From Escherichia coli (lineage in GTDB: Bacteria > Pseudomonadota > Gammaproteobacteria > Enterobacterales > Enterobacteriaceae), in NCBI RefSeq assembly GCF_050320075.1, contig NZ_CP190018.1: 64,000 bases of DNA. The stretch is one strand, 5' to 3'. Shown in pieces: positions 1 through 10,486 of this stretch. The translations under genes and the position numbers were made by a program. The notes under the pieces are model-generated. The model saw only the letters and a list, made by a program, of their open reading frames with translations, was not told the DNA's origin and did no database searches. The stretch's first letter is position 1, and every line of letters begins with the position of its first letter.

Positions 1-2
1 AT

Positions 3-155
3 AACGTTAAGGGCGTTGCAGAGGGTTCTAAGGCCATCAGAATCACAACGGACCAACTGGAACTACTCAAAGCACAGTCCGCAGTAGCAGGTTGCTCAAT
101 GATTCAGGTGTTAAGCGCAAAGGTCCATCAATTAGCGGATAGGCTGGGGGTTTAA
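3..155 (+). CDS. 3' end of an unknown ORF running in from upstream of the window (partial, about 50 codons visible)
   Basis: Open frame from position 3 with no stop until TAA at 153-155; that stop overlaps the ATG at 155 of the next ORF (TAATG). Not in the ORF track because it has no start inside the window. Confidence 0.3.
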   Translation, partial: NVKGVAEGSKAIRITTDQLELLKAQSAVAGCSMIQVLSAKVHQLADRLGV

Positions 156-580
156 TGCTATGCACATTTGATTATCATGCGTTTTATCGCCATAGAGGCC
201 ACCTTGTCCGTGAGAATAGCGGAACATGGAAAGATTTAACTCGTAATGCTGAACCCTTCACACACCAGCAATTAAAATCCCGCTTCTCCAGATGGAAGAA
301 TGCACCAGCAGATACTGGTGATTTTGAGATTATCCATACCTTCGATTATGCCTCAGAAGATGACCTTCACGATGCAATTAAGCTGATTGAAGACTTCAAT
401 ACCTCAGAAGATGTGGATGGTGACAAATATAAATCCCGTGGTAACCGCTATAACCGTGATGATATCACTCAGGCCATAAATGCTGGTCAATCTCAGCGAT
501 ACATTACAGAAAAATATGGTATTTCACGGAGACAGTATTTCTACGTTAAATCATTGATTAATAAAGACAATTCAAAATAA
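155..580 (+). CDS. hypothetical protein, 141 aa, with a C-terminal helix-turn-helix-like segment
   Basis: ORF-track ORF; ATG overlaps the upstream stop (TAATG); C-terminal stretch DDITQAINAGQSQRYITEKYGISRRQYFYV resembles a DNA-binding HTH; AT-rich codon usage like the rest of the element. Confidence 0.5.
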   Translation: MLCTFDYHAFYRHRGHLVRENSGTWKDLTRNAEPFTHQQLKSRFSRWKNAPADTGDFEIIHTFDYASEDDLHDAIKLIEDFNTSEDVDGDKYKSRGNRYNRDDITQAINAGQSQRYITEKYGISRRQYFYVKSLINKDNSK

Positions 581-717
581 CCATCTCAGTAACGGTAGAA
601 TGCACTTTACAGGCAGAGTTGCACCTTAATTTGATAAATTACCTTACCAGCCAGTGCAACTCCCTCTGTAACCCGCATGATTACTGGTCTCAGAATGGCT
701 ATTTTAAGAGGTCTGAG

Positions 718-1065
718 ATGTGTTTTGTAGGAGATTTAAAAATGAACAACTTCCCATTACAGATTTTCGTTGATAACGACACCGCTATGATGGTGCAAAG
801 CTTCAGTGATGCAGGTATTAGCATTGATTTTGACAGGCTGTTAAAGCTAATGGCTGATAATGAAGAAAACGTCTCTGACTTTATTCACTCGGTGGAGTTT
901 AACGAGCCTCGAATGATGTTACCAATTACAGACAGTAATATGAAAAGATTGGTTATTGAGCAAACGAACAAATACAGTATTTCCCCAGAGCAATTTTTGA
1001 AAGGTGCTGTGACAATCCTGTACAGCGATAATATTTTGGTTACGGATTCCGTGAGGGTTCACTAA
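718..1065 (+). CDS. hypothetical protein, about 115 aa (alternative start at 742)
   Basis: ORF-track ORF 619..1065 begins at a TTG; a better start is ATG 718 preceded by AAGAGG (706-711), or ATG 742 preceded by GGAG. No recognisable motif. Confidence 0.45.
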   Translation: MCFVGDLKMNNFPLQIFVDNDTAMMVQSFSDAGISIDFDRLLKLMADNEENVSDFIHSVEFNEPRMMLPITDSNMKRLVIEQTNKYSISPEQFLKGAVTILYSDNILVTDSVRVH

Positions 1066-1142
1066 TGGGCTTAATAATTGCTTGGACGTTGCTTGGCTTA
1101 TTTGTTGGTTGCTGGGTAGGCAGCACAGTAAATAGAAATTGA
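1065..1142 (+). CDS. candidate 25-aa hydrophobic micro-protein (MGLIIAWTLLGLFVGCWVGSTVNRN)
   Basis: ATG at 1065-1067 overlaps the TAA stop of the preceding ORF (TAATG); a single predicted transmembrane stretch followed by a polar tail; too short to appear in the ORF track. Confidence 0.3.
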   Translation: MGLIIAWTLLGLFVGCWVGSTVNRN

Positions 1143-1166
1143 TGTTACCAATCTGTTAAAAAGCTG

Positions 1167-1195
1167 TTGACAAATAACCTTAAGCATGAGATGAT
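1167..1195 (+). promoter_or_regulatory. sigma70-like promoter candidate (TTGACA, 17-bp spacer, TGn-GATGAT)
   Basis: Perfect -35 hexamer TTGACA at 1167-1172, 17-bp spacer, TG at 1187-1188 and a weak -10 GATGAT at 1190-1195; followed immediately by a short GAGAG/CTCTC hairpin and a T-run. Confidence 0.35.
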
Positions 1196-1359
1196 GGTAA
1201 TAGGGGAGAGCAACTCTCTCTTATTTTTCTTTCAAAATAATCCGATGGATGGATATTCTGAATTGGAAAGGTGCAATGCTTTTCGTCATGGCCTTTCAGT
1301 TTAGTCTGAGAGGCTATCTCAAAAAGTGCTTAATCATTCATTGAACCCTTTACAGCTTT

Positions 1360-1388
1360 GCCCTAACTCATGATTAGGGCTTTCTTTA
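1360..1388 (+). terminator. intrinsic-terminator-like hairpin (GCCCTAA / TTAGGGC) followed by TTTCTTT
   Basis: Perfect 7-bp inverted repeat at 1360-1366 and 1374-1380 with a 7-nt loop, then a U-rich tract. Confidence 0.4.
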
Positions 1389-1636
1389 AGAGTTTTTAAA
1401 CAGAGCTTTTAAAGAAAGTTTTTCCTGAAACTTCGTTAACGTTAAAGCAAACCTTCAAAGCCCTTCACAGATGAGGATGATTCCATGAATATCCGAATCA
1501 CCTATGTTTAGGGCTTTTTTCAGCTTTTAAAAAGCATACTTGGCAAACGCCTTTTAAGCCTCTTCTAAGTTCGAGGATGTCAGGTGTGCTTTTTAAAAAC
1601 TGAAACATAAATTATCTTAGAAGAGGAAAGGTATTA

Positions 1637-2341
1637 ATGGCTATCCGTGATGAAAATGAAATGATTATTGAAAACAAACCAAGTGCACTTGATATTCACG
1701 AATTAAGTTTGCGTGAATCTTTTGATAGAGCTTGGCGGGAATCACACGAAGTAAATAAAGGTCCATATATTCCACCAGAACCACTCGAGATTCCAAGAGT
1801 TGAAATTGATTTTTCTATGAACGAACGGTGTGAACTTGATTTGAAGTTGAAGCTACAACGCCGATATTTCCAAGCTATTAAAGACTCTCAAGAAGCAATG
1901 AGAAGTGTTTATGAGAAAATTCAGTCCAAGCTTGAAGACGAAATTGACGAAATGGCTATTTTGATGGAGCTTCAAACCAATCCTTATGCTTATTTCTCTC
2001 GACTAGACCGTGACGGTTGGGGGTATGACCCTGTAGAGATTGGTAAAGTGATTGCAGATTTACCAGAAGGTCAAAGGGTTATTCGTACGGAAAGGGCCAT
2101 CAGAGCGCCACATCAACTGTCTCTAATTGTTGCTGATAAATCACAAGCTGAGCTTGAAGAAATTGCCAAAGAGAAACTGATGAAAGCAAGAGAAAATGAG
2201 ATTAATTTGCTGAAATCAAGACTGGCTAAGCTGATTAGTGACCATCAAGCGCTGGCTAAGGAGTACCGTCAAGAGTTGGCACAGATTATCAGCTTCAATG
2301 ATTTTCTGAGTGTTCCACGAGAATTTAGCAAGGCTGTTTGA
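1637..2341 (+). CDS. hypothetical acidic protein, 234 aa
   Basis: Strong RBS (AGAGGAAAGG) 7 nt upstream of the ATG; glutamate- and lysine-rich with an apparently helical C-terminal half; no motif recognised. Confidence 0.6.
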   Translation: MAIRDENEMIIENKPSALDIHELSLRESFDRAWRESHEVNKGPYIPPEPLEIPRVEIDFSMNERCELDLKLKLQRRYFQAIKDSQEAMRSVYEKIQSKLEDEIDEMAILMELQTNPYAYFSRLDRDGWGYDPVEIGKVIADLPEGQRVIRTERAIRAPHQLSLIVADKSQAELEEIAKEKLMKARENEINLLKSRLAKLISDHQALAKEYRQELAQIISFNDFLSVPREFSKAV

Positions 2342-2364
2342 TTATGAATTAAAAGAGGTGATTA

Positions 2365-2583
2365 ATGTATGAAGACCGTTTGGAAACTATCAAGGCAGTT
2401 TGTGAAAAACTTAAAAACCAACCACGTAAACCAAAAACGGTAAAGAGTAAGCATCAGCCTGTCACCTCAAACAGCAAAATAAAGATTCGCAAAATTCCTT
2501 CGTGGTGCATTGACCGTATTCCGGTTGGTTCAAGAATTATTCGTGAAGATGGTGATTATCATTGGGTATCAGTTGTTGGTTAG
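2365..2583 (+). CDS. hypothetical small basic protein, 72 aa
   Basis: RBS AAAGAGGTGA upstream of the ATG; lysine/arginine-rich; followed by an intrinsic terminator. Confidence 0.5.
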   Translation: MYEDRLETIKAVCEKLKNQPRKPKTVKSKHQPVTSNSKIKIRKIPSWCIDRIPVGSRIIREDGDYHWVSVVG

Positions 2584-2598
2584 TTAGTAAAAATCTAC

Positions 2599-2638
2599 GG
2601 GAGAGATTATCGAGTGATATCGGTAGCTCTCCCTTTTT
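2599..2638 (+). terminator. rho-independent terminator
   Basis: GGGAGAG (2599-2605) pairs with CTCTCCC (2627-2633), followed by TTTTT. Confidence 0.55.
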
Positions 2639-2671
2639 CGTATATGAACACTTAAGAGGTGAAAAATATGA

Positions 2672-4804
2672 ATGAGCAAATTCACAGTTGATAGTTTTAT
2701 CGTTGAATTAAGCTTCAATGAAAACATTATTAAGGGCTTGCAAAGAGTTGAAAAGGCAGCTTTGCAGTCAGCACAAAGAATTGAAAAGAACCTAAATAAA
2801 GGTTTCAGGATTAATACAAAGCAGCTTGATAGTAATTTAACGGCTTCTTTAGGGCAGCTTGAAAGGAAGTTTAATAAGGCCTTTGACAAGATTGAACAGA
2901 GAGCAAGAAATACTAAAGCTTTCCAGTTTACCACCAGATTTAATGACACTGTTAATCCTCCAAAACAACCGAGACAGCCACGAATTAGCGGCAACAGAGC
3001 AATCACAGCAGCTTACTCAGCGAATATGAGCAAGCTAAAAGGCTTTGACCCTATTTTGCAGAAATACATCAAATCTCAGTTTTACGGGCTATCTGCTAAA
3101 GCCGGTTCAATGGATTCTTCAAAATTCAATGAGAAGTTAGCTCAGTTAAACGCTTCAGTCAGAGAAGCAATTGCTAAAGCCAGAGGTCATACATCCACCA
3201 GCATTAATGGTGACAGAGCAGCTAATAGTCTTGATAACCTGTCTTCAGCAGCAGTTAAAACAGCAGGTGCATTTATCTCAATGCAGGCTGTATTAGCCAG
3301 TTATCAGAAGATTATGGAAATTGGTTTACAGCGTGCAAGTGCTGAACGTTCAATTGATTTCGTATTTGATAAAGATGCAGGTCAAGTAAAAGAGTTCACA
3401 AAGTCATTAGCTCAAACAACGGGTTTAGATATCGCTGAACTGCAATCACAGTTTGCTGGTTTTGGTGCTTCAGCTAAAGAGTCTATGGGCATTCAAGGTT
3501 CTGAAGAACTTTTTAAAAATATGATTGGCTATGCTCGTCTGATGGGGAGAAGTGAAGAAGAGATTAAGCGAGCACTGACAGCATTATCACAGATGGCTGG
3601 TAAGGGTCAGGTTATGGCTGAAGAGCTTAAGGGGCAATTAGCTGAAGCTGTTCCTGGTATGGTTCAGGTATTCGCTAAAGCAACCGGAAGGAATGAACAA
3701 GAGCTATTTGATGCCATGAAGAAGGGGGCTTTAAAATCTGCCGATACTCTTCAGAAGGTCACTCAGGAACTGAATAAACAAATCACCGCTAAAGGTGGCT
3801 GGAAAGCTATTTCAGAAAGTACACAGGCACAACTAGGGAACCTGAAAAACTCTTGGAATACCACGCTTGATAGTATCTTCAGAGGTTCTGAAGATGGTCT
3901 GCAAGATTTTACAAGAAGCTTAACAACGCTTTTAAACGCTCTTGGTGGAAGTGGTAAAAGTCTTGGTGAATCTCTTGGTAGTCTCATGACTTCTATGTCA
4001 CATGGTGTCGATTCATTGACTGATATCAGCTACAGGGTAAGAGCATTCTTCGATGAGGTGACATTAGCTTACCGTTCACTAAATGACACTCAGAAAAAAA
4101 TTGTTGATGGTTTATCTGATGGGTTAATTGATGGTTTGAAGATGCTTGCCGTAGCTGTTACTGCTCAAAAGGCTGCAAATGTAGCTGGAGGCTTGTTAAA
4201 CCTTGCAAATGCTGTTACTTCATTCGGTGATGCTGTTAATAAAGCTAAAGCTGGCAAGGCTGGTTCTTCAGGTGGTGCGCTAAATAAAGTTGGTAGAGTT
4301 GTTCTTTATGCTGAGTTGGTGAACTTTGCTCTTGATAATTTAAACCCTGAAGCGGCTAAGAATCCGAACTTACACCAATCAGGTATTGGAACAGAGACAA
4401 ACTTCAACCCTGAATACAAAGGCGATTCATCTAAACCAAACCAAATTAATGATGGATGGGCTAAGATTGGTAGTTCTATCGCTGACTGGTTTAATGGTGC
4501 GGCTAATAAAATTGCTAACTTCCAAGACCCGATGAATAACTTTGTTAATAACACACAATCAACTCCACCAGCTATCACAGGTGACATGGTTAATAGCAAT
4601 GCTCAACTTGCTATGGCTGTATCAGAGTTAGGAAGAAAGGTAGACGCTTTAACAGTAGAAGCTAAGAAGCCTTTATCAGTTAATATCAAAGGTGAAGCAA
4701 TTGTTAGACCGGATGAACCAGCTTTCTTTACTTTCAATCAATCAGCTAATGACCAGTTCACGCAGGATATGCTCTTAAGTTCAAGCTATCCAGAGGAAGA
4801 ATGA
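2672..4804 (+). CDS. phage tail tape-measure-domain protein (TMP-like), 710 aa
   Basis: RBS AAGAGGTG upstream; helical, alanine/glycine/lysine-rich; the segment ALTALSQMAGKGQVMAEELKGQLAEAVPGMVQVFAKATGRNEQELFDAMKKGALKSADTLQKV matches, from memory, the conserved core of phage tape-measure proteins. Confidence 0.6.
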   Translation: MSKFTVDSFIVELSFNENIIKGLQRVEKAALQSAQRIEKNLNKGFRINTKQLDSNLTASLGQLERKFNKAFDKIEQRARNTKAFQFTTRFNDTVNPPKQPRQPRISGNRAITAAYSANMSKLKGFDPILQKYIKSQFYGLSAKAGSMDSSKFNEKLAQLNASVREAIAKARGHTSTSINGDRAANSLDNLSSAAVKTAGAFISMQAVLASYQKIMEIGLQRASAERSIDFVFDKDAGQVKEFTKSLAQTTGLDIAELQSQFAGFGASAKESMGIQGSEELFKNMIGYARLMGRSEEEIKRALTALSQMAGKGQVMAEELKGQLAEAVPGMVQVFAKATGRNEQELFDAMKKGALKSADTLQKVTQELNKQITAKGGWKAISESTQAQLGNLKNSWNTTLDSIFRGSEDGLQDFTRSLTTLLNALGGSGKSLGESLGSLMTSMSHGVDSLTDISYRVRAFFDEVTLAYRSLNDTQKKIVDGLSDGLIDGLKMLAVAVTAQKAANVAGGLLNLANAVTSFGDAVNKAKAGKAGSSGGALNKVGRVVLYAELVNFALDNLNPEAAKNPNLHQSGIGTETNFNPEYKGDSSKPNQINDGWAKIGSSIADWFNGAANKIANFQDPMNNFVNNTQSTPPAITGDMVNSNAQLAMAVSELGRKVDALTVEAKKPLSVNIKGEAIVRPDEPAFFTFNQSANDQFTQDMLLSSSYPEEE

Positions 4805-4967
4805 TTTCTTATATATCCGTGTGCTACGTGATTTCTTCTGAACAGATATACCCACTAAAAATTATTTTTTACGTAGCTCACGCTTAACAGAGAAAATACT
4901 TATATATCAAAGGCTTGGTTAAAAATGATTAAAATACACTAAGCCTTTGAAATCAAAGGAGAATTTA

Positions 4968-5741
4968 ATGATTTACTCTAATCAGATTCGTTACAGTGGT
5001 AAAGATGGCGTTTACTTTCATCTACAAGGCCAGCCAGATAATTTCTTGTCACTATCAGCTACTGAGAACATGGAATTTGACAGCCCTATGATGGTTACCA
5101 CTCAAAATATGCAATCAGGGCAGACTGTCACAGATAATGTAATGCGTTCACCCAGAACTATTTCAATCAGTGGTGTGGTTGTAGTTGGTGAATCCGGTAG
5201 TATCCTTATCTCAAGAGATAATAAGCTGGTGGAAAACTTCATAGACACTCTTGAAAACTGGCGTGACCAGAAGCAAATTATCTCAGTTGTCTGTAAAGAT
5301 GGTATTAAGATTGACGACTCAATTATTACAAACTTTAAAGCCTCTAAAGATGTTGGTATTGCCAATGGTCTTAGAATCCAATTAACTTTTCAGGAAATTA
5401 ACTTTAAAGCTATTGTGGGTCAGACTGATATCTCGGCTGCGACCGGAAGGACTTCTACCACAAGTGATGGTGGTGCTACCAGTAAAAAGAATACAGGGAA
5501 CACTACGACAAGCTTAGGTAACGGTATGTTGATGTGTCAGGAGCTATATAATCGCTCTACGAGTGAACTTACTAATGAGCAACTTCAAGCCCGTATCAAT
5601 TGTGGTAAAAATGTCAGAGTTAAGAACGGAAAAAGCACCTTCTCAGATGCCGCTAATGAGCAAGCTTCAAAGGTGCTTAATAATGCTGGTACAGGTAGTA
5701 CTTTGAAGAAGTATTCTGTTAATCCTAACAAGCGATACTGA
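4968..5741 (+). CDS. hypothetical protein, 257 aa; possibly a distal-tail-like protein, judged only by position after the tape-measure gene
   Basis: ORF-track ORF 4947..5741 begins at a TTG; preferred start is ATG 4968 preceded by AAGGAG. The N-terminal half looks beta-strand-rich and the C-terminal half is Ser/Thr/Gly/Asn-rich. Confidence 0.5.
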
Positions 5742-5755
5742 CGATAGAATCTCAA

Positions 5756-7279
5756 CTATATGATAACCTCATCAACATCTATTAAACCCCTCTCAGTGAC
5801 TTCAGAAAGCGACTGTATAGCCTCTGTAACGTTGTCTGAGGGGTTTTCTGTTATTGGTAAGGTGATTGCTTTACCGTTGTGAAAAGTTACTTTACAGCGA
5901 CGTTTAGCAGTATTTAAAACGACCTCTTTAACAGCACTTTTGATTATCAGTTGTGCTTCAATCCTTCCCGCCTTTGTAGTCAAGTCACAATCAGACAAAC
6001 AACCCACATCAATAGATTTAAGGCGTTGTGTCTCCTTCTCGATATCCGCATCAACTTGTGATAGCTCATTCTTTAGTTGTCTTAGTTTGCTGGTAATAGC
6101 GGACAAGTCTTCAATTTCAAGTGATAGCTGTACCAGCTTTTCAATATTGCTTGAGATGTGTTCACGGTGTAGCTTCAGTGTGTCTATGGTATTCGTCATA
6201 TCGCTATCAAATCGGTCAAGACGAGATAGCAGGGCAAGCAATGTACCATCGGTTTGCTTACGTGAAAGTCCTTTAGCACTACAACGGTTTTCATTACGAA
6301 GAGGACAACGATAAATCCCGTTTCTTGTATCGCTAAAGCCTGTGATAATCAAAGCATGACCACATTCAGAACAACGGATAACACCTTTGAAAAGATTCAC
6401 AGCCATTGGCTTATCTGAAGCAGGTTTTCTACCGTAACGAGCATATGATAGTTGTTGAACTTTGTAGAATGTTGTTTCATCTATAATTGCAGGATAATAA
6501 CCAGATATCTCCTCACAGCCTTTAGGTGTGAAGTAACCAATTACAGAGCGATTCTTCAAAAGGTCTTGCACTGAGGTTTGACCAAACTTACCTGCTTTGT
6601 ACTGGTTAAGCGTCTGGTGACCTTCAGCATTAAGAGTTCTGACAATCTCCCAGATAGACTTACCCTCTAACCGTAGCTGAAAGCACCTCTTCACAGTCTC
6701 CACTTTCTCAGGTATCACAGAGAAGCTTTTACGGTCATCATTAAGCTTAAGCCATGCAGGACAACGCCTAGAAATCTTGATACCAGCTTTAGCAGCTTCT
6801 TTCTTTGCATCCCATGCAGCTTGTATACGCTCAGCCTTACGTAATGATTCCTCATGCGCCCTTTGCATTATCAAAATGCTTTTAATCAGAGCTAACGGGT
6901 CTTTAAGAGATTCCCTTGTGTAATGTTCACCATCGGACAGGGTGACTACATCTACACCAGAGCGAAGAATGTTTCTGAGTAGCTCACTTGCTTGGTCTAC
7001 GTCCTGACGTGAGAGACGGTCTAAACTCTCGATTAGTAGTGTATCACCAGCTTTAACAAGCCCTTTCTCGATAGCGGTTAAAAAGTCACCTAAGCCACCT
7101 TTCAAGTGCTTACCAGTGAACCCGCTAACGCCTAAATCACGAAAAGTAAGGGATTCATCCAGATAGTACTCAGGATGAGCCTTAAGCCAATCAGTGACCA
7201 TCTTAGCCTGTCGTCTTAATGAGTCGCCTCTGGATTGCTTCTCAGATGAAAACCGGATGTAACTGATTGCACGTTTCAT
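5756..7279 (-). CDS. large serine recombinase (phage-type serine integrase), 507 aa
   Basis: N-terminal resolvase-type catalytic domain (ISYIRFSSEKQSRGDSL...LLIESLDRLSRQ), a central recombinase region, a cysteine-rich zinc-ribbon-like motif (CSECGHALIITG...YRCPLRNENRCSAKG) and a coiled-coil C-terminus; convergent with the cargo genes and adjacent to the host junction. Confidence 0.85.
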   Translation of the reverse strand: MKRAISYIRFSSEKQSRGDSLRRQAKMVTDWLKAHPEYYLDESLTFRDLGVSGFTGKHLKGGLGDFLTAIEKGLVKAGDTLLIESLDRLSRQDVDQASELLRNILRSGVDVVTLSDGEHYTRESLKDPLALIKSILIMQRAHEESLRKAERIQAAWDAKKEAAKAGIKISRRCPAWLKLNDDRKSFSVIPEKVETVKRCFQLRLEGKSIWEIVRTLNAEGHQTLNQYKAGKFGQTSVQDLLKNRSVIGYFTPKGCEEISGYYPAIIDETTFYKVQQLSYARYGRKPASDKPMAVNLFKGVIRCSECGHALIITGFSDTRNGIYRCPLRNENRCSAKGLSRKQTDGTLLALLSRLDRFDSDMTNTIDTLKLHREHISSNIEKLVQLSLEIEDLSAITSKLRQLKNELSQVDADIEKETQRLKSIDVGCLSDCDLTTKAGRIEAQLIIKSAVKEVVLNTAKRRCKVTFHNGKAITLPITENPSDNVTEAIQSLSEVTERGLIDVDEVII

Positions 7280-7346
7280 TGTTCACCTCACCAATAGCAG
7301 TTGGGCTTGTACCAACCCCTAGATTGTATCGCTTTAGATGGTGTAT

Positions 7347-7841
7347 TTAAACGTGTCTAATAAAAATCACCCGATTAACGCCGCGCTGATGTAAACCGCG
7401 ATTAAGCGTTTGTTCCTCTTCCCCTTTGGCGAAAAACTGTGGATGGCGGACTTCCACACCATAATTAAATTCGCCGGGAAGGGAATCGAGAAAATGCCAA
7501 AGCGCAGGCAGATCCCGTGGGCCAAATGTGGCAGGCAGTTGCAGCCAGTATTGCCCAATGCGCGGCGCTAACGGTGACATGCGGGTCAAAAATTCAGTCA
7601 CTAAATCATCGCAATGCCGTAATGCTGCCTGATGCGAAATGGTCGCCGGAAACTTAAAACAGAAGCGAAAATTATCTGTGGTCTGCTCACGCCAGCGCAG
7701 GACAACCTCGGATTTCGGCAGGGCGTAAAGCGTGGTGTTGCCCTCCACACAGTTAAAGTGGCGGGCATACTCTTCAAGGCTGGTGATCCCCAACCGCACC
7801 CATTTAGGATGCGACCATTGCGGCAGACCGATGTAAATCAT
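7347..7841 (-). pseudogene. yecE: yecE (DUF72 family), 5' portion only: reading frame interrupted by the insertion
   Basis: N-terminus [29 protein letters not shown] matches recalled YecE; the frame stops after 164 codons (intact YecE is about 272 aa from memory) exactly where GC-rich host sequence changes to the AT-rich element. Confidence 0.7.
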
Positions 7842-8404
7842 AATGCGTTGAGGATCTCTTCCACACTGCGCACACGGGCGATGCGTGGGTAGATATGGTT
7901 GATGCTGTTATTGTGCTGCTCGGCGCTGGCGGCGCTGCAGGCGTCTTCGGCAATCACCAGATTAAAACCGAGTTCCCAGGCATTGCGGGCGGTGGATTCA
8001 ACACCGATATTGGTCGAGATCCCACATAATACTATTGTATCGATACCCCGGCGGCGTAATTGCAACTCCAGATCTGTACCGTAAAACGCCCCCCACTGAC
8101 GTTTGATGATTTCGATATCACTGTCAGTTGCACCTAATGCAGCAGGATGTTGCCACCAGTTTTCGGGCAACACTTTAGCGGGGGAAGGGGCATCAACCGG
8201 CTGTTTTAATGCTTCGGCGTAATCGGCAGACCAGCCAACGCGCACCAGAAACACGGGCTGACCGCTGGCGCGAAATTTCACCGCCAGCTTCCCGGCGCGA
8301 TTAACCACCTCATCGGCAGTATGTGGACCTCCGGCAAAAGGTAAGATGCCTTCTTGTAAATCAATCACCACCAGCGCGGTGGTTTTAGCATTAAGTTCAA
8401 GCAT
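7838..8404 (-). CDS. yecD: isochorismatase-family hydrolase YecD
   Basis: [23 protein letters not shown]...; ORF-track ORF trimmed to the internal Met that gives a 188-aa product. Confidence 0.85.
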
Positions 8405-8713: not shown

Positions 8714-10486
8714 ATGCGTACAGAATATTGTGGACAGCTCCGTTTGTCCCACGTGGGGCAGCAGGTGACTCTGTGTGGTTGGGTCAACCGTCGTCGTGAT
8801 CTTGGTAGCCTGATCTTCATCGATATGCGCGACCGCGAAGGTATCGTGCAGGTATTTTTCGATCCGGATCGTGCGGACGCGTTAAAGCTGGCCTCTGAAC
8901 TGCGTAATGAGTTCTGCATTCAGGTCACGGGCACCGTACGTGCGCGTGACGAAAAAAATATTAACCGCGATATGGCGACTGGCGAAATCGAAGTACTGGC
9001 GTCCTCGCTGACTATCATCAACCGTGCAGATGTTCTGCCGCTTGACTCTAACCACGTCAACACCGAAGAAGCGCGTCTGAAATACCGCTACCTCGACCTG
9101 CGTCGCCCGGAAATGGCTCAGCGCCTGAAAACCCGCGCTAAAATCACCAGCCTGGTGCGCCGTTTTATGGATGACCACGGCTTCCTCGACATCGAAACTC
9201 CGATGCTGACCAAAGCCACGCCGGAAGGCGCGCGTGACTACCTGGTGCCTTCTCGTGTGCACAAAGGTAAATTCTACGCACTGCCGCAATCCCCACAGTT
9301 GTTCAAACAGCTGCTGATGATGTCCGGCTTTGACCGTTACTATCAGATCGTTAAATGCTTCCGTGACGAAGACCTGCGCGCTGATCGTCAGCCTGAATTT
9401 ACTCAGATCGATGTGGAAACTTCTTTCATGACCGCGCCGCAAGTGCGTGAAGTGATGGAAGCGCTGGTGCGTCATCTGTGGCTGGAAGTGAAGGGCGTGG
9501 ATCTGGGCGATTTCCCGATAATGACCTTTGCGGAAGCAGAACGCCGTTATGGTTCTGATAAACCGGATCTGCGTAACCCGATGGAACTGACTGACGTTGC
9601 CGATCTGCTGAAATCTGTTGAATTTGCAGTATTTGCAGGTCCGGCGAACAATCCGAAAGGGCGCGTTGCCGCTCTGCGTGTTCCGGGTGGCGCATCGCTG
9701 ACCCGTAAGCAGATCGACGAATACGGTAACTTCGTTAAAATCTACGGCGCGAAAGGTCTGGCTTACATCAAAGTTAACGAACGCGCGAAAGGTCTGGAAG
9801 GTATCAACAGCCCGGTAGCGAAGTTCCTTAATGCAGAAATCATCGAAGCCATCCTGGATCGTACTGCCGCGCAAGATGGCGATATGATTTTCTTCGGTGC
9901 CGACAACAAGAAAATTGTTGCCGACGCGATGGGCGCACTGCGCCTGAAAGTGGGTAAAGACCTTGGTCTGACCGACGAAAGCAAATGGGCACCGCTGTGG
10001 GTTATCGATTTCCCGATGTTTGAAGACGACGGTGAAGGCGGCCTGACGGCAATGCACCATCCGTTCACCTCACCGAAAGACATGACTGCTGCAGAACTGA
10101 AAGCTGCACCAGAAAATGCGGTGGCGAACGCTTACGATATGGTCATCAATGGTTACGAAGTGGGCGGTGGTTCTGTGCGTATCCATAATGGTGATATGCA
10201 GCAGACGGTGTTTGGTATTCTGGGTATCAACGAAGAGGAACAGCGCGAGAAATTCGGCTTCCTGCTCGACGCCCTGAAATACGGTACTCCGCCGCACGCA
10301 GGTCTGGCATTCGGTCTTGACCGTCTGACGATGCTGCTGACCGGCACCGACAATATCCGTGACGTTATCGCCTTCCCGAAAACCACGGCGGCGGCGTGTC
10401 TGATGACTGAAGCACCGAGCTTTGCTAACCCGACTGCACTGGCTGAGCTGAGCATTCAGGTTGTGAAGAAGGCAGAGAATAACTGA
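8714..10486 (+). CDS. aspS: aspartate--tRNA ligase
   Basis: 590-aa ORF with class II aminoacyl-tRNA synthetase motifs ([28 protein letters not shown]). Confidence 0.95.

Follow-up and report, generated by a model that had tools for sequence, protein, structure and literature searches.

The 64,000-nucleotide (nt) stretch of Escherichia coli DNA analysed here (contig NZ_CP190018.1 of assembly GCF_050320075.1; hereafter the window) carries near its start two adjacent open reading frames (ORFs), ORF3 and ORF4, followed by a terminator. Both lie in the right part (window 1 to ~7369) of a 12.2-kb element within yecE, and their likely role in this element is the subject of this report. An earlier note, made from the sequence alone, had described them as a separately transcribed unit of two genes of opposite charge, perhaps an enzyme with its inhibitor or a chaperone with its cargo. 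The pair and its signals comprise the following features, with protein lengths in amino acids (aa):

1620-1632, + strand: Shine-Dalgarno (SD) sequence 5' of ORF3, GAAGAGGAAAGG
1637-2341, + strand: ORF3, ATG start, acidic protein of 234 aa
2353-2361, + strand: SD sequence of ORF4, AAGAGGTGA, by direct reading of the sequence
2365-2583, + strand: ORF4, ATG start, basic protein of 72 aa
2599-2638, + strand: intrinsic terminator or attenuator between ORF4 and the tape measure protein (TMP) gene, predicted by folding and conserved in 12 loci

The two genes, spaced 23 nt apart, are separately translated, each with its own SD sequence, and their products are opposite in charge, as the earlier note had it: ORF3 has an isoelectric point (pI) of 5.12 and a net charge of -10, and ORF4 a pI of 9.88 and a net charge of +7.7, almost all of it within a 25-residue Lys/Arg linker. 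Among relatives, ORF3 is kept down to 22-25% identity and ORF4 down to ~36-42%. The ratio of nonsynonymous to synonymous substitution rates (dN/dS) is 0.14-0.25 for close pairs of ORF3 (~0.5 in saturated comparisons with the relative L009) and 0.25-0.34 for ORF4, resembling that of the adjoining TMP gene. ORF3 and ORF4 are real genes under purifying selection. Their fusion by frameshift or read-through was ruled out, both alternative frames being closed: the -1 and +1 frames at the 3' end of ORF3 hold many stops, and TAA (2350-2352) and TGA (2359-2361) stops stand shortly 5' of the ORF4 ATG. The frame of ORF4 relative to that of ORF3, taken from gene coordinates, differs between relatives (0, +1 or -1). 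The programmed frameshift that the earlier note had named as a sign of an ordinary structural role was not found.

The opposite charges, the tight spacing and a terminator of their own would suit a self-contained two-partner cargo, such as a toxin with its antitoxin or an enzyme with its inhibitor. This explanation is scarcely credible: neither protein matches a catalytic, toxin, antitoxin or defence family (Pfam, PHROGs, PADLOC), the pair stands in the conserved core of the element and not at its variable cargo end, and in one relative a further ORF separates the two genes. Their alleles moreover reassort independently, ORF3 at 97% identity occurring with ORF4 at 47%, and ORF3 at 25% with ORF4 at 56-70%. 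Nothing was found in favour of an enzyme-inhibitor pairing either, neither protein having a catalytic motif (Pfam, PADLOC). The notion of a chaperone with its cargo stays viable, the likely cargo being the adjoining TMP and not ORF4. The extra ORF (91 aa, L005 10697-10972) was seen in one divergent element, in which the true ORF4 homologue (MTYEERLNLIQSICERLQ...) is a small unannotated ORF just 3' of it that the gene caller had missed.

An identical copy of the element is found in E. coli YZLc1-3, where the 12.2-kb insert splits yecE (DUF72). From left to right, the element begins with a 306-aa orphan ORF, a Dam-type methyltransferase with a helix-turn-helix (HTH) tail, and a 322-aa initiator-like protein that matches phage (lambda) O-like replication initiators (PHROGs, E 1e-7). 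It continues with four small ORFs, the leader, ORF3, ORF4, the terminator, the 710-aa TMP, a Dit-like protein and a recombinase on the opposite strand. The gene inventory of the 12.2-kb element includes no capsid, terminase or lysis gene. The features to the right of the terminator are as follows:

2672-4804, + strand: TMP, 710 aa (Pfam TMP_3, PHROG 4036, tblastn against phages)
4968-5741, + strand: Dit-like baseplate protein, 70% identical to gp74 of phage wV8
5756-7279, - strand: large serine recombinase (integrase), 507 aa (Pfam Resolvase, Recombinase and Zn_ribbon_recom; PHROG 95)
7347-7841, - strand: 5' fragment of yecE (RefSeq annotation of the split DUF72/yecE gene)
7363-7369, no strand: tentative right junction with the core AAAATCA, a short repeat present at both junctions

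The order ORF3, ORF4, terminator, TMP, Dit-like protein and recombinase recurs in every relative examined, and the TMP and Dit-like genes lie 3' of ORF3 and ORF4 in each of the 14 related loci long enough to show it. Relatives that share this core order occupy a site between yciI and tonB or a third one, near mdoH, and each of the three insertion sites has its own integrase type. Matches to the query region occur in 473 of 5426 complete E. coli genomes, on the chromosome in every case, and the hosts named in the records of the ORF3/ORF4 family are E. coli, Shigella, Citrobacter and Kluyvera. ORF3 and ORF4 very probably belong to the tail cassette of a satellite-like element. A remnant of a Stx-type or P27-like prophage at yecE was ruled out, the element being a discrete 12-kb unit found at three sites with site-specific integrase types.

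Mobility of the family is documented by a relative (L011, an 11,280-bp contig from Logan SRR22802630), which is circularly permuted and has a 27-nt terminal overlap. Its junction (near 3743-3755) joins the right end to the left end of an integrated relative (L009 4432-15697) through a 13-nt shared attachment (att) core, and the circle, at 11,253 bp, is shorter than the integrated form by exactly this core. Because the circle matches the integrated ends exactly, the element family excises precisely; the excised circular form was observed for this relative, and not for the copy in the window. For the window copy, the AAAATCA repeat at both junctions with the disrupted yecE is a tentative candidate for the att core. 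The hits in IMG/VR, for the most part prophage-style calls made on the genomes of isolates, do not count as evidence that the element is packaged.

The presence of a serine integrase raises the alternative that ORF4, with ORF3 as its partner, is a recombination directionality factor (RDF) or another DNA-binding regulator for this enzyme. The RDF of a large serine recombinase is in many cases a small, basic orphan protein, ORF4 has its Lys/Arg-rich linker, and the element offered no other candidate for an RDF. This role is very unlikely, given that the identities of ORF4 and of the integrase give a Spearman rho of 0.08, that integrases 93% identical occur with ORF4 at 44% and integrases 34% identical with ORF4 at 76%, and that ORF4 of the window type is also paired with a tonB-type integrase. 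In PLE, the satellite of the Vibrio cholerae phage ICP1, the RDF is supplied by the helper (PMC6002521). ORF4 as the RDF of the integrase was rejected, identical or near-identical ORF4 alleles being found with integrases only 34% alike.

The tail genes of the element point to a particular group of phages. The best phage matches of the TMP are Felixounavirus TMPs, with ~30% identity over residues 1-478 (tblastn), and its first ~45 residues are 65-70% identical to gp73 of the Felixounavirus wV8. The Dit-like protein resembles wV8 gp74, whose gene is the next after the TMP gene in Felixounavirus, and all of its 299 phage homologues belong to Ounavirinae. The element thus looks, to judge by these homologies, like an undescribed satellite of FelixO1-type (Felixounavirus) lytic myophages. 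In every element the N-terminal ~45 residues of the TMP (window 2672-2810) are almost those of the phage, and its first 200 residues carry a charge of ~+17. The C-terminal ~250 residues (window ~4000-4650) are hypervariable and mosaic, with 5-30% identity between alleles, a pattern suggesting that the distal tape measure recombines and is under diversifying pressure.

A second stretch of likeness to these phages is non-coding. A ~160-nt block (L001 15635-15797), ~3.07 kb to the left of window position 1, is ~71% identical to a large gene-free region of Felixounaviruses (L019 609-772, L020 2501-2664) and shares with it the motifs GATATTTTaAaATTyTGCAAAGGGGGTG, CAGATATTTTTGA and TTTTATAAAAATTTT. 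Of the 12 element loci searched by BLAST, 11 retain parts of the block, and one, L007, gave no hit. The block may mimic a packaging, origin or regulatory site.

In the right half of the element, DNA homology to the phages starts at the ribosome-binding site (RBS) of the TMP gene, so that ORF3, ORF4 and the terminator are not of phage origin. The motif of this RBS (AAGAGGTGAAA, 2654-2664, + strand) is nearly the same as the SD sequence of ORF4 (AAGAGGTGA). The gene order in wV8 is tube gene, terminator, the tail assembly chaperone (TAC) gene gp71 (132 aa), gp72 (79 aa), TMP gp73 and gp74. ORF3 and ORF4 stand directly 5' of the TMP gene in all sufficiently long loci, and so occupy the slot of gp71 and gp72. 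In gp71, a T_TTT_TTC slippery heptamer (L004 5717-5723) is followed by a -1 frame open into gp72, which predicts a gp71-72 fusion in the classical G/GT arrangement; the record annotates two separate genes.

The occupants of this slot are not recognisably related to those in the phage. Both gp71 and gp72 match TAC PHROGs (at 1e-48 and 1e-55), whereas ORF3 and ORF4 have no TAC match in PHROGs or Pfam at E <= 1, and show no similarity to gp71 or gp72 by BLASTP. Hidden Markov models (HMMs) of ORF3 and ORF4 score at most 3 bits against gp71, gp72 and the modelled fusion. Homology to TACs, which the earlier note had named as the other sign of a standard role, was therefore not found by any of these searches (PHROGs, Pfam, BLASTP, HMMs). 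With the gpG/gpGT type of chaperones (wV8 gp71/gp72; PHROGs 1613, 3840, 4963) the pair shares its location directly 5' of the TMP gene with a terminator nearby, its composition of two ORFs of which the second encodes ~70-80 aa, and the acidity of the first protein. It differs in lacking sequence or profile similarity, a slippery site and an open overlapping frame. ORF3 is also 100 residues longer than gp71 and is a predicted coiled coil, ORF4 is basic and gp72 acidic, and the terminator follows the pair in the element and precedes it in the phage.

Searches beyond the chaperones were equally without result. Comparison of ORF3 and ORF4 with Pfam, PHROGs, PADLOC and PDB sequence profiles gave nothing significant, in keeping with the earlier note, which had recognised no motif in either, and tblastn against 50,697 phage records gave no significant match. 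A weak match of ORF3 to Pfam DUF7384 (E 3e-4, below the cut-off) falls in the C-terminal coiled coil and was disregarded. Both protein families are very small: an exhaustive profile search with ORF3 across 1.84 billion representatives returned 12 hits, ~five of them full-length clusters, all from its own family, and ORF3 therefore has no distant annotated relative in that set. The full-length clusters for which context was retrieved all lie in the same cassette.

From a shallow alignment, AlphaFold gave a poor model of ORF3, with a predicted local distance difference test score (pLDDT) of 57. A model of ORF3 joined to ORF4 by a linker, from a more diverse alignment, reached 71 overall and ~90 for the ORF3 core. 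In this second model, ORF3 consists of a disordered acidic N-terminus, a helix (60-114), an alpha/beta knob (121-166) and a second helix (170-224). Its conserved central motif, D-x-DG-x-G ... LPEG ... A-x-R ... SDK, stands between the two long helices and falls in the knob. The modelled fold would be an antiparallel coiled-coil hairpin with an apical knob, which is compatible with a holdase and not diagnostic of one. The model gives ORF4 an N-terminal helix (IKAxCE), a disordered 25-residue basic linker and a small C-terminal beta domain (IPxWCIDRxP) of three strands (pLDDT ~80). Since the fused model carries no inter-domain confidence, it is evidence neither for nor against a complex of the two proteins.

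Foldseek comparison of the models with PDB and BFVD gave no significant match. The top matches were to V-ATPase subunit D, another helix-knob-helix hairpin, and the weak BFVD matches of ORF3 are coiled-coil virion proteins. ORF3 has no sequence similarity to the prefoldin and Skp 'jellyfish' holdases, and the structural match to them is of the kind common to coiled-coil hairpins at large, with similar scores for V-ATPase subunit D, IpaB and designed bundles.

The relation of the pair to the TMP gene depends on how the terminator is read. A hairpin with a 14-bp stem (2599-2633) is followed by U5 and has a centroid energy of ~-21 kcal/mol (z = -2.85); a simple consensus terminator scan missed it owing to its loop rules. 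A hairpin and T-run lie 3' of ORF4 in 12 of the 12 related loci folded, with differing stem sequences, and the terminator that the earlier note had placed after ORF4 is borne out. Its corollary, that the pair is transcribed separately from the tail-like gene downstream, fares less well: the TMP starts ~35 nt past the terminator, the promoter scan found no promoter-like site in this gap, and the TMP and Dit-like genes are linked to the pair in all 14 loci. This invariant linkage, the short promoterless gap and the occurrence of a terminator near the phage chaperone genes as well make the terminator look like an attenuator. ORF3 through the Dit-like gene would, by inference from the sequence, form one module with internal attenuation and not two units. 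In some of the elements (L012 ~9690-9800, L013 ~7230-7340, L015 ~2560-2640), a further ~80-100 nt are inserted after the ORF4 terminator, ahead of the TMP RBS, and this insert holds the inverted repeat GCTACGTGAAA...TTTTACGTAGC.

Upstream, ORF3 is preceded by a leader of ~470-570 nt, which includes window 1167-1626 and contains these features:

1167-1195, + strand: sigma-70-like promoter, TTGACA-17-GATGAT, the best in the promoter scan (10/12 matches)
1199-1225, + strand: hairpin and T-run directly 3' of the promoter (terminator scan)
1360-1380, + strand: second terminator-like element of the leader
near 1497-1520, + strand: third terminator-like element of the leader, seen by eye only
1518-1605, + strand: long conserved hairpin in the ORF3 5' leader (inverted repeats I1 and I6)

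Across a 9-locus alignment TTGACAA is invariant and the stem of the first hairpin (GGGAGAGCAA..CTC) is conserved, and CATAAT or TATAAT replaces GATGAT in relatives. The consensus fold of the hairpin at 1518-1605 is marked by wobble and compensatory changes. The loop at its apex (1559-1569, CCTCTTCTAAG) has a sequence complementary to that of the ORF3 SD region (1616-1626, CTTAGAAGAGG), and this anti-SD and the SD covary across two sequence types, CCTCTTCTAAG occurring with CTTAGAAGAGG and TTCACCTCT with AGAGGTGAA. The energies of the duplexes are -14 to -22 kcal/mol, compared with -8 to -11 for shuffles. Given this covarying complementarity between the SD and a conserved hairpin loop, translation of ORF3 is probably gated by the anti-SD and not constitutively strong. 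The strong RBS that the earlier note saw at ORF3 is thus real as an SD sequence, but probably locked. The leader as a whole looks like a combination of transcription attenuation and a translational lock. Rfam gave no match on window 1-8000, and megablast and blastn of the leader against phages gave no significant match.

Among the genes of the tail cassette, ORF3 and ORF4 alone are both conserved and element-specific, and they replace the phage chaperones, which makes them obvious candidates for TMP selection. The interpretation tentatively put forward here, with somewhat less than even confidence, is that they are element-specific assembly factors that replace the helper's tape-measure chaperones in the tail cassette of a satellite. 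According to this proposal, the ~12-kb integrative and self-replicating element would parasitise Felixounavirus as the Vibrio cholerae PLEs do ICP1. Infection by the helper would lead to expression of the cassette from the long structured leader, with its sigma-70 promoter, terminator-like hairpins and anti-SD lock on ORF3. ORF3 (an acidic coiled-coil hairpin of prefoldin/Skp-like topology) and ORF4 (a small basic adaptor) would then substitute for gp71 and gp71-72, hold the basic TMP of the element, and deliver the TMP and the Dit-like ring into baseplates and tubes made by the helper. The element would exit in chimeric tails, and helper tail assembly would be disturbed. The identity of the helper, induction by it, a chaperone or assembly function of ORF3/ORF4 and the chimeric tails are what we infer from the arrangement of the genes.

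A more specific version, in which a prefoldin-like coiled-coil holdase and a small basic adaptor constitute a new, non-homologous class of tape-measure handling proteins, is doubtful. If true, such a holdase and adaptor would make the satellite TMP replace the helper TMP in otherwise stolen tails.

ORF3 is acidic as TACs are, and the TMP N-terminus is basic, which is counted in favour of a chaperone. Several observations weigh on the other side. ORF3 and ORF4 match no TAC in sequence or profile, Foldseek gave no significant structural match to one, and no covariation of the TMP with ORF3 or ORF4 was found (rho 0.14 and 0.28): ORF3 at 97% identity occurs with TMPs at 44-59%, and ORF4 at 100% with a TMP at 43%. 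Without such covariation, the two proteins could only contact those parts of the TMP that are conserved, or else a protein of the helper. A conserved terminator also divides ORF3/ORF4 from the TMP gene, and the PLEs use a canonical TAC fold, so that the analogy with them would predict no novel chaperone.

The nearest known systems are the PLEs themselves, all of which encode a TAC and a TMP, and some also a baseplate hub, BhuB (PMC11838301). PLE particles contain PLE TMP and BhuB in tails otherwise derived from ICP1 (PMC11838301, bioRxiv 10.1101/2025.01.29.635557), and deletions of PLE tmp lose 96-99.9% of transduction (PMC11838301). The PLE1 TAC has the HK97-like fold of PDB 5IR0 (PMC11838301). 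The same paper calls the means of selective incorporation of the PLE TMP unknown (PMC11838301), and the holdase and adaptor proposed above would, if real, supply the 'unknown and likely conserved mechanism' noted there. The present element resembles the PLEs in being a small integrative element with a large serine recombinase, its own replication initiator and no virion of its own, in having as its apparent helper a lytic myophage ~seven times larger, and in encoding its own TMP and a helper-homologous baseplate protein with one or two small genes ahead of them. The Dit-like protein would by position be the counterpart of BhuB. The element differs in its host and (putative) helper, which are E. 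coli and Felixounavirus, in having the non-canonical ORF3/ORF4 ahead of the TMP, with ORF3 modelled as a coiled-coil hairpin and the PLE1 TAC HK97-like, and in the closeness of the baseplate protein to its helper counterpart (70% as against 41%). By analogy, it would work like a PLE in architecture; it is treated here as PLE-like and not as a PLE.

The size of the element, at 12.2 kb about one-seventh of the 86-88 kb genome of the helper, suggests a different role for ORF3, possibly with ORF4, namely that of a scaffold that redirects capsid size in the manner of P4 Sid, PLE TcaP or SaPI CpmA/CpmB, so that the helper would build small heads fitting a 12-kb genome. The ratio of element to helper size is similar to that of PLE to ICP1. 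No other gene of the element resembles a capsid-remodelling factor, and ORF3, at ~230 aa, acidic and mostly helical coiled coil, has the general look of a scaffolding protein, to which its weak BFVD matches to coiled-coil virion proteins may be added. With P4 Sid, PLE TcaP and SaPI CpmB it has in common that it is an orphan, helical, satellite-specific protein (these range from ~70 to 240 aa) of an element far smaller than its helper. It differs from them in its position inside a tail cassette and in the absence of detected similarity. This role is nonetheless unlikely, as ORF3 is similar to no scaffold or PHROG head family, the genes lie in the tail cassette exactly in the TAC slot, and capsid redirection is not obligatory, since multimers of the element could be packaged.

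It is also rather improbable that ORF3 and ORF4 are interference factors that block or divert helper tail assembly, for example by sequestering the helper TAC, TMP or tube protein, in the manner of PLE11 Rta, Tai or Tab, and that thereby favour the TMP of the element or do no more than shield the host population. Proteins that block tail assembly are, as a rule, orphans encoded by satellites and prophages (PMC11364771, PMC11838301). The deeply divergent ORF3 alleles (22-42% identity) reassort freely, as they would in an arms race with a helper target, and the helper-like N-terminus of the TMP means that helper TACs might already serve it. Interference of this kind would sit less easily with the lack of a PADLOC match and with the standing of both as core genes, present in every member and under purifying selection; Rta, by comparison, is found in a single PLE, and there not within the tail cluster (PMC11838301).

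FelixO1-type phages are widely used in biocontrol and therapy of Salmonella and E. coli. If the assignment of the pair to a satellite tail cassette is true, ~9% of complete E. coli genomes would harbour a small parasite of such phages, and these elements would alter phage efficacy and host range and move DNA between strains. Satellites with their own tape measure were first reported in 2025, in the PLEs and then in a second TMP-encoding class, the mycobacterial EPIPs (PMC11838301; bioRxiv 10.64898/2025.12.02.691453). A literature search of incomplete coverage, which is no proof of novelty, found no description of a satellite of E. coli or of Felixounavirus, and the family appears to be new to the literature. 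E. coli and Felixounavirus are a genetically tractable pair. Should ORF3 and ORF4 prove unrelated to tails, they would still stand as a well-defined pair of orphans, kept under selection within a mobile element.

Two further conserved core ORFs lie 5' of the leader. One (window 155-580) encodes 141 aa with a weak C-terminal HTH (HTH_28), and the other (window 742-1065) an acidic protein of 107 aa, whose alleles track those of ORF3 best (rho 0.74). The left end of the element consists of variable cargo (L001 13920-16613; L009 4562-6196; L002 15523-16071), which is either the 306-aa orphan with the Dam-HTH methyltransferase or a Pin-like small resolvase with a 221-aa orphan that has a weak HamB-like match (E 1e-3). 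The left end may be a hotspot for defence or accessory genes.

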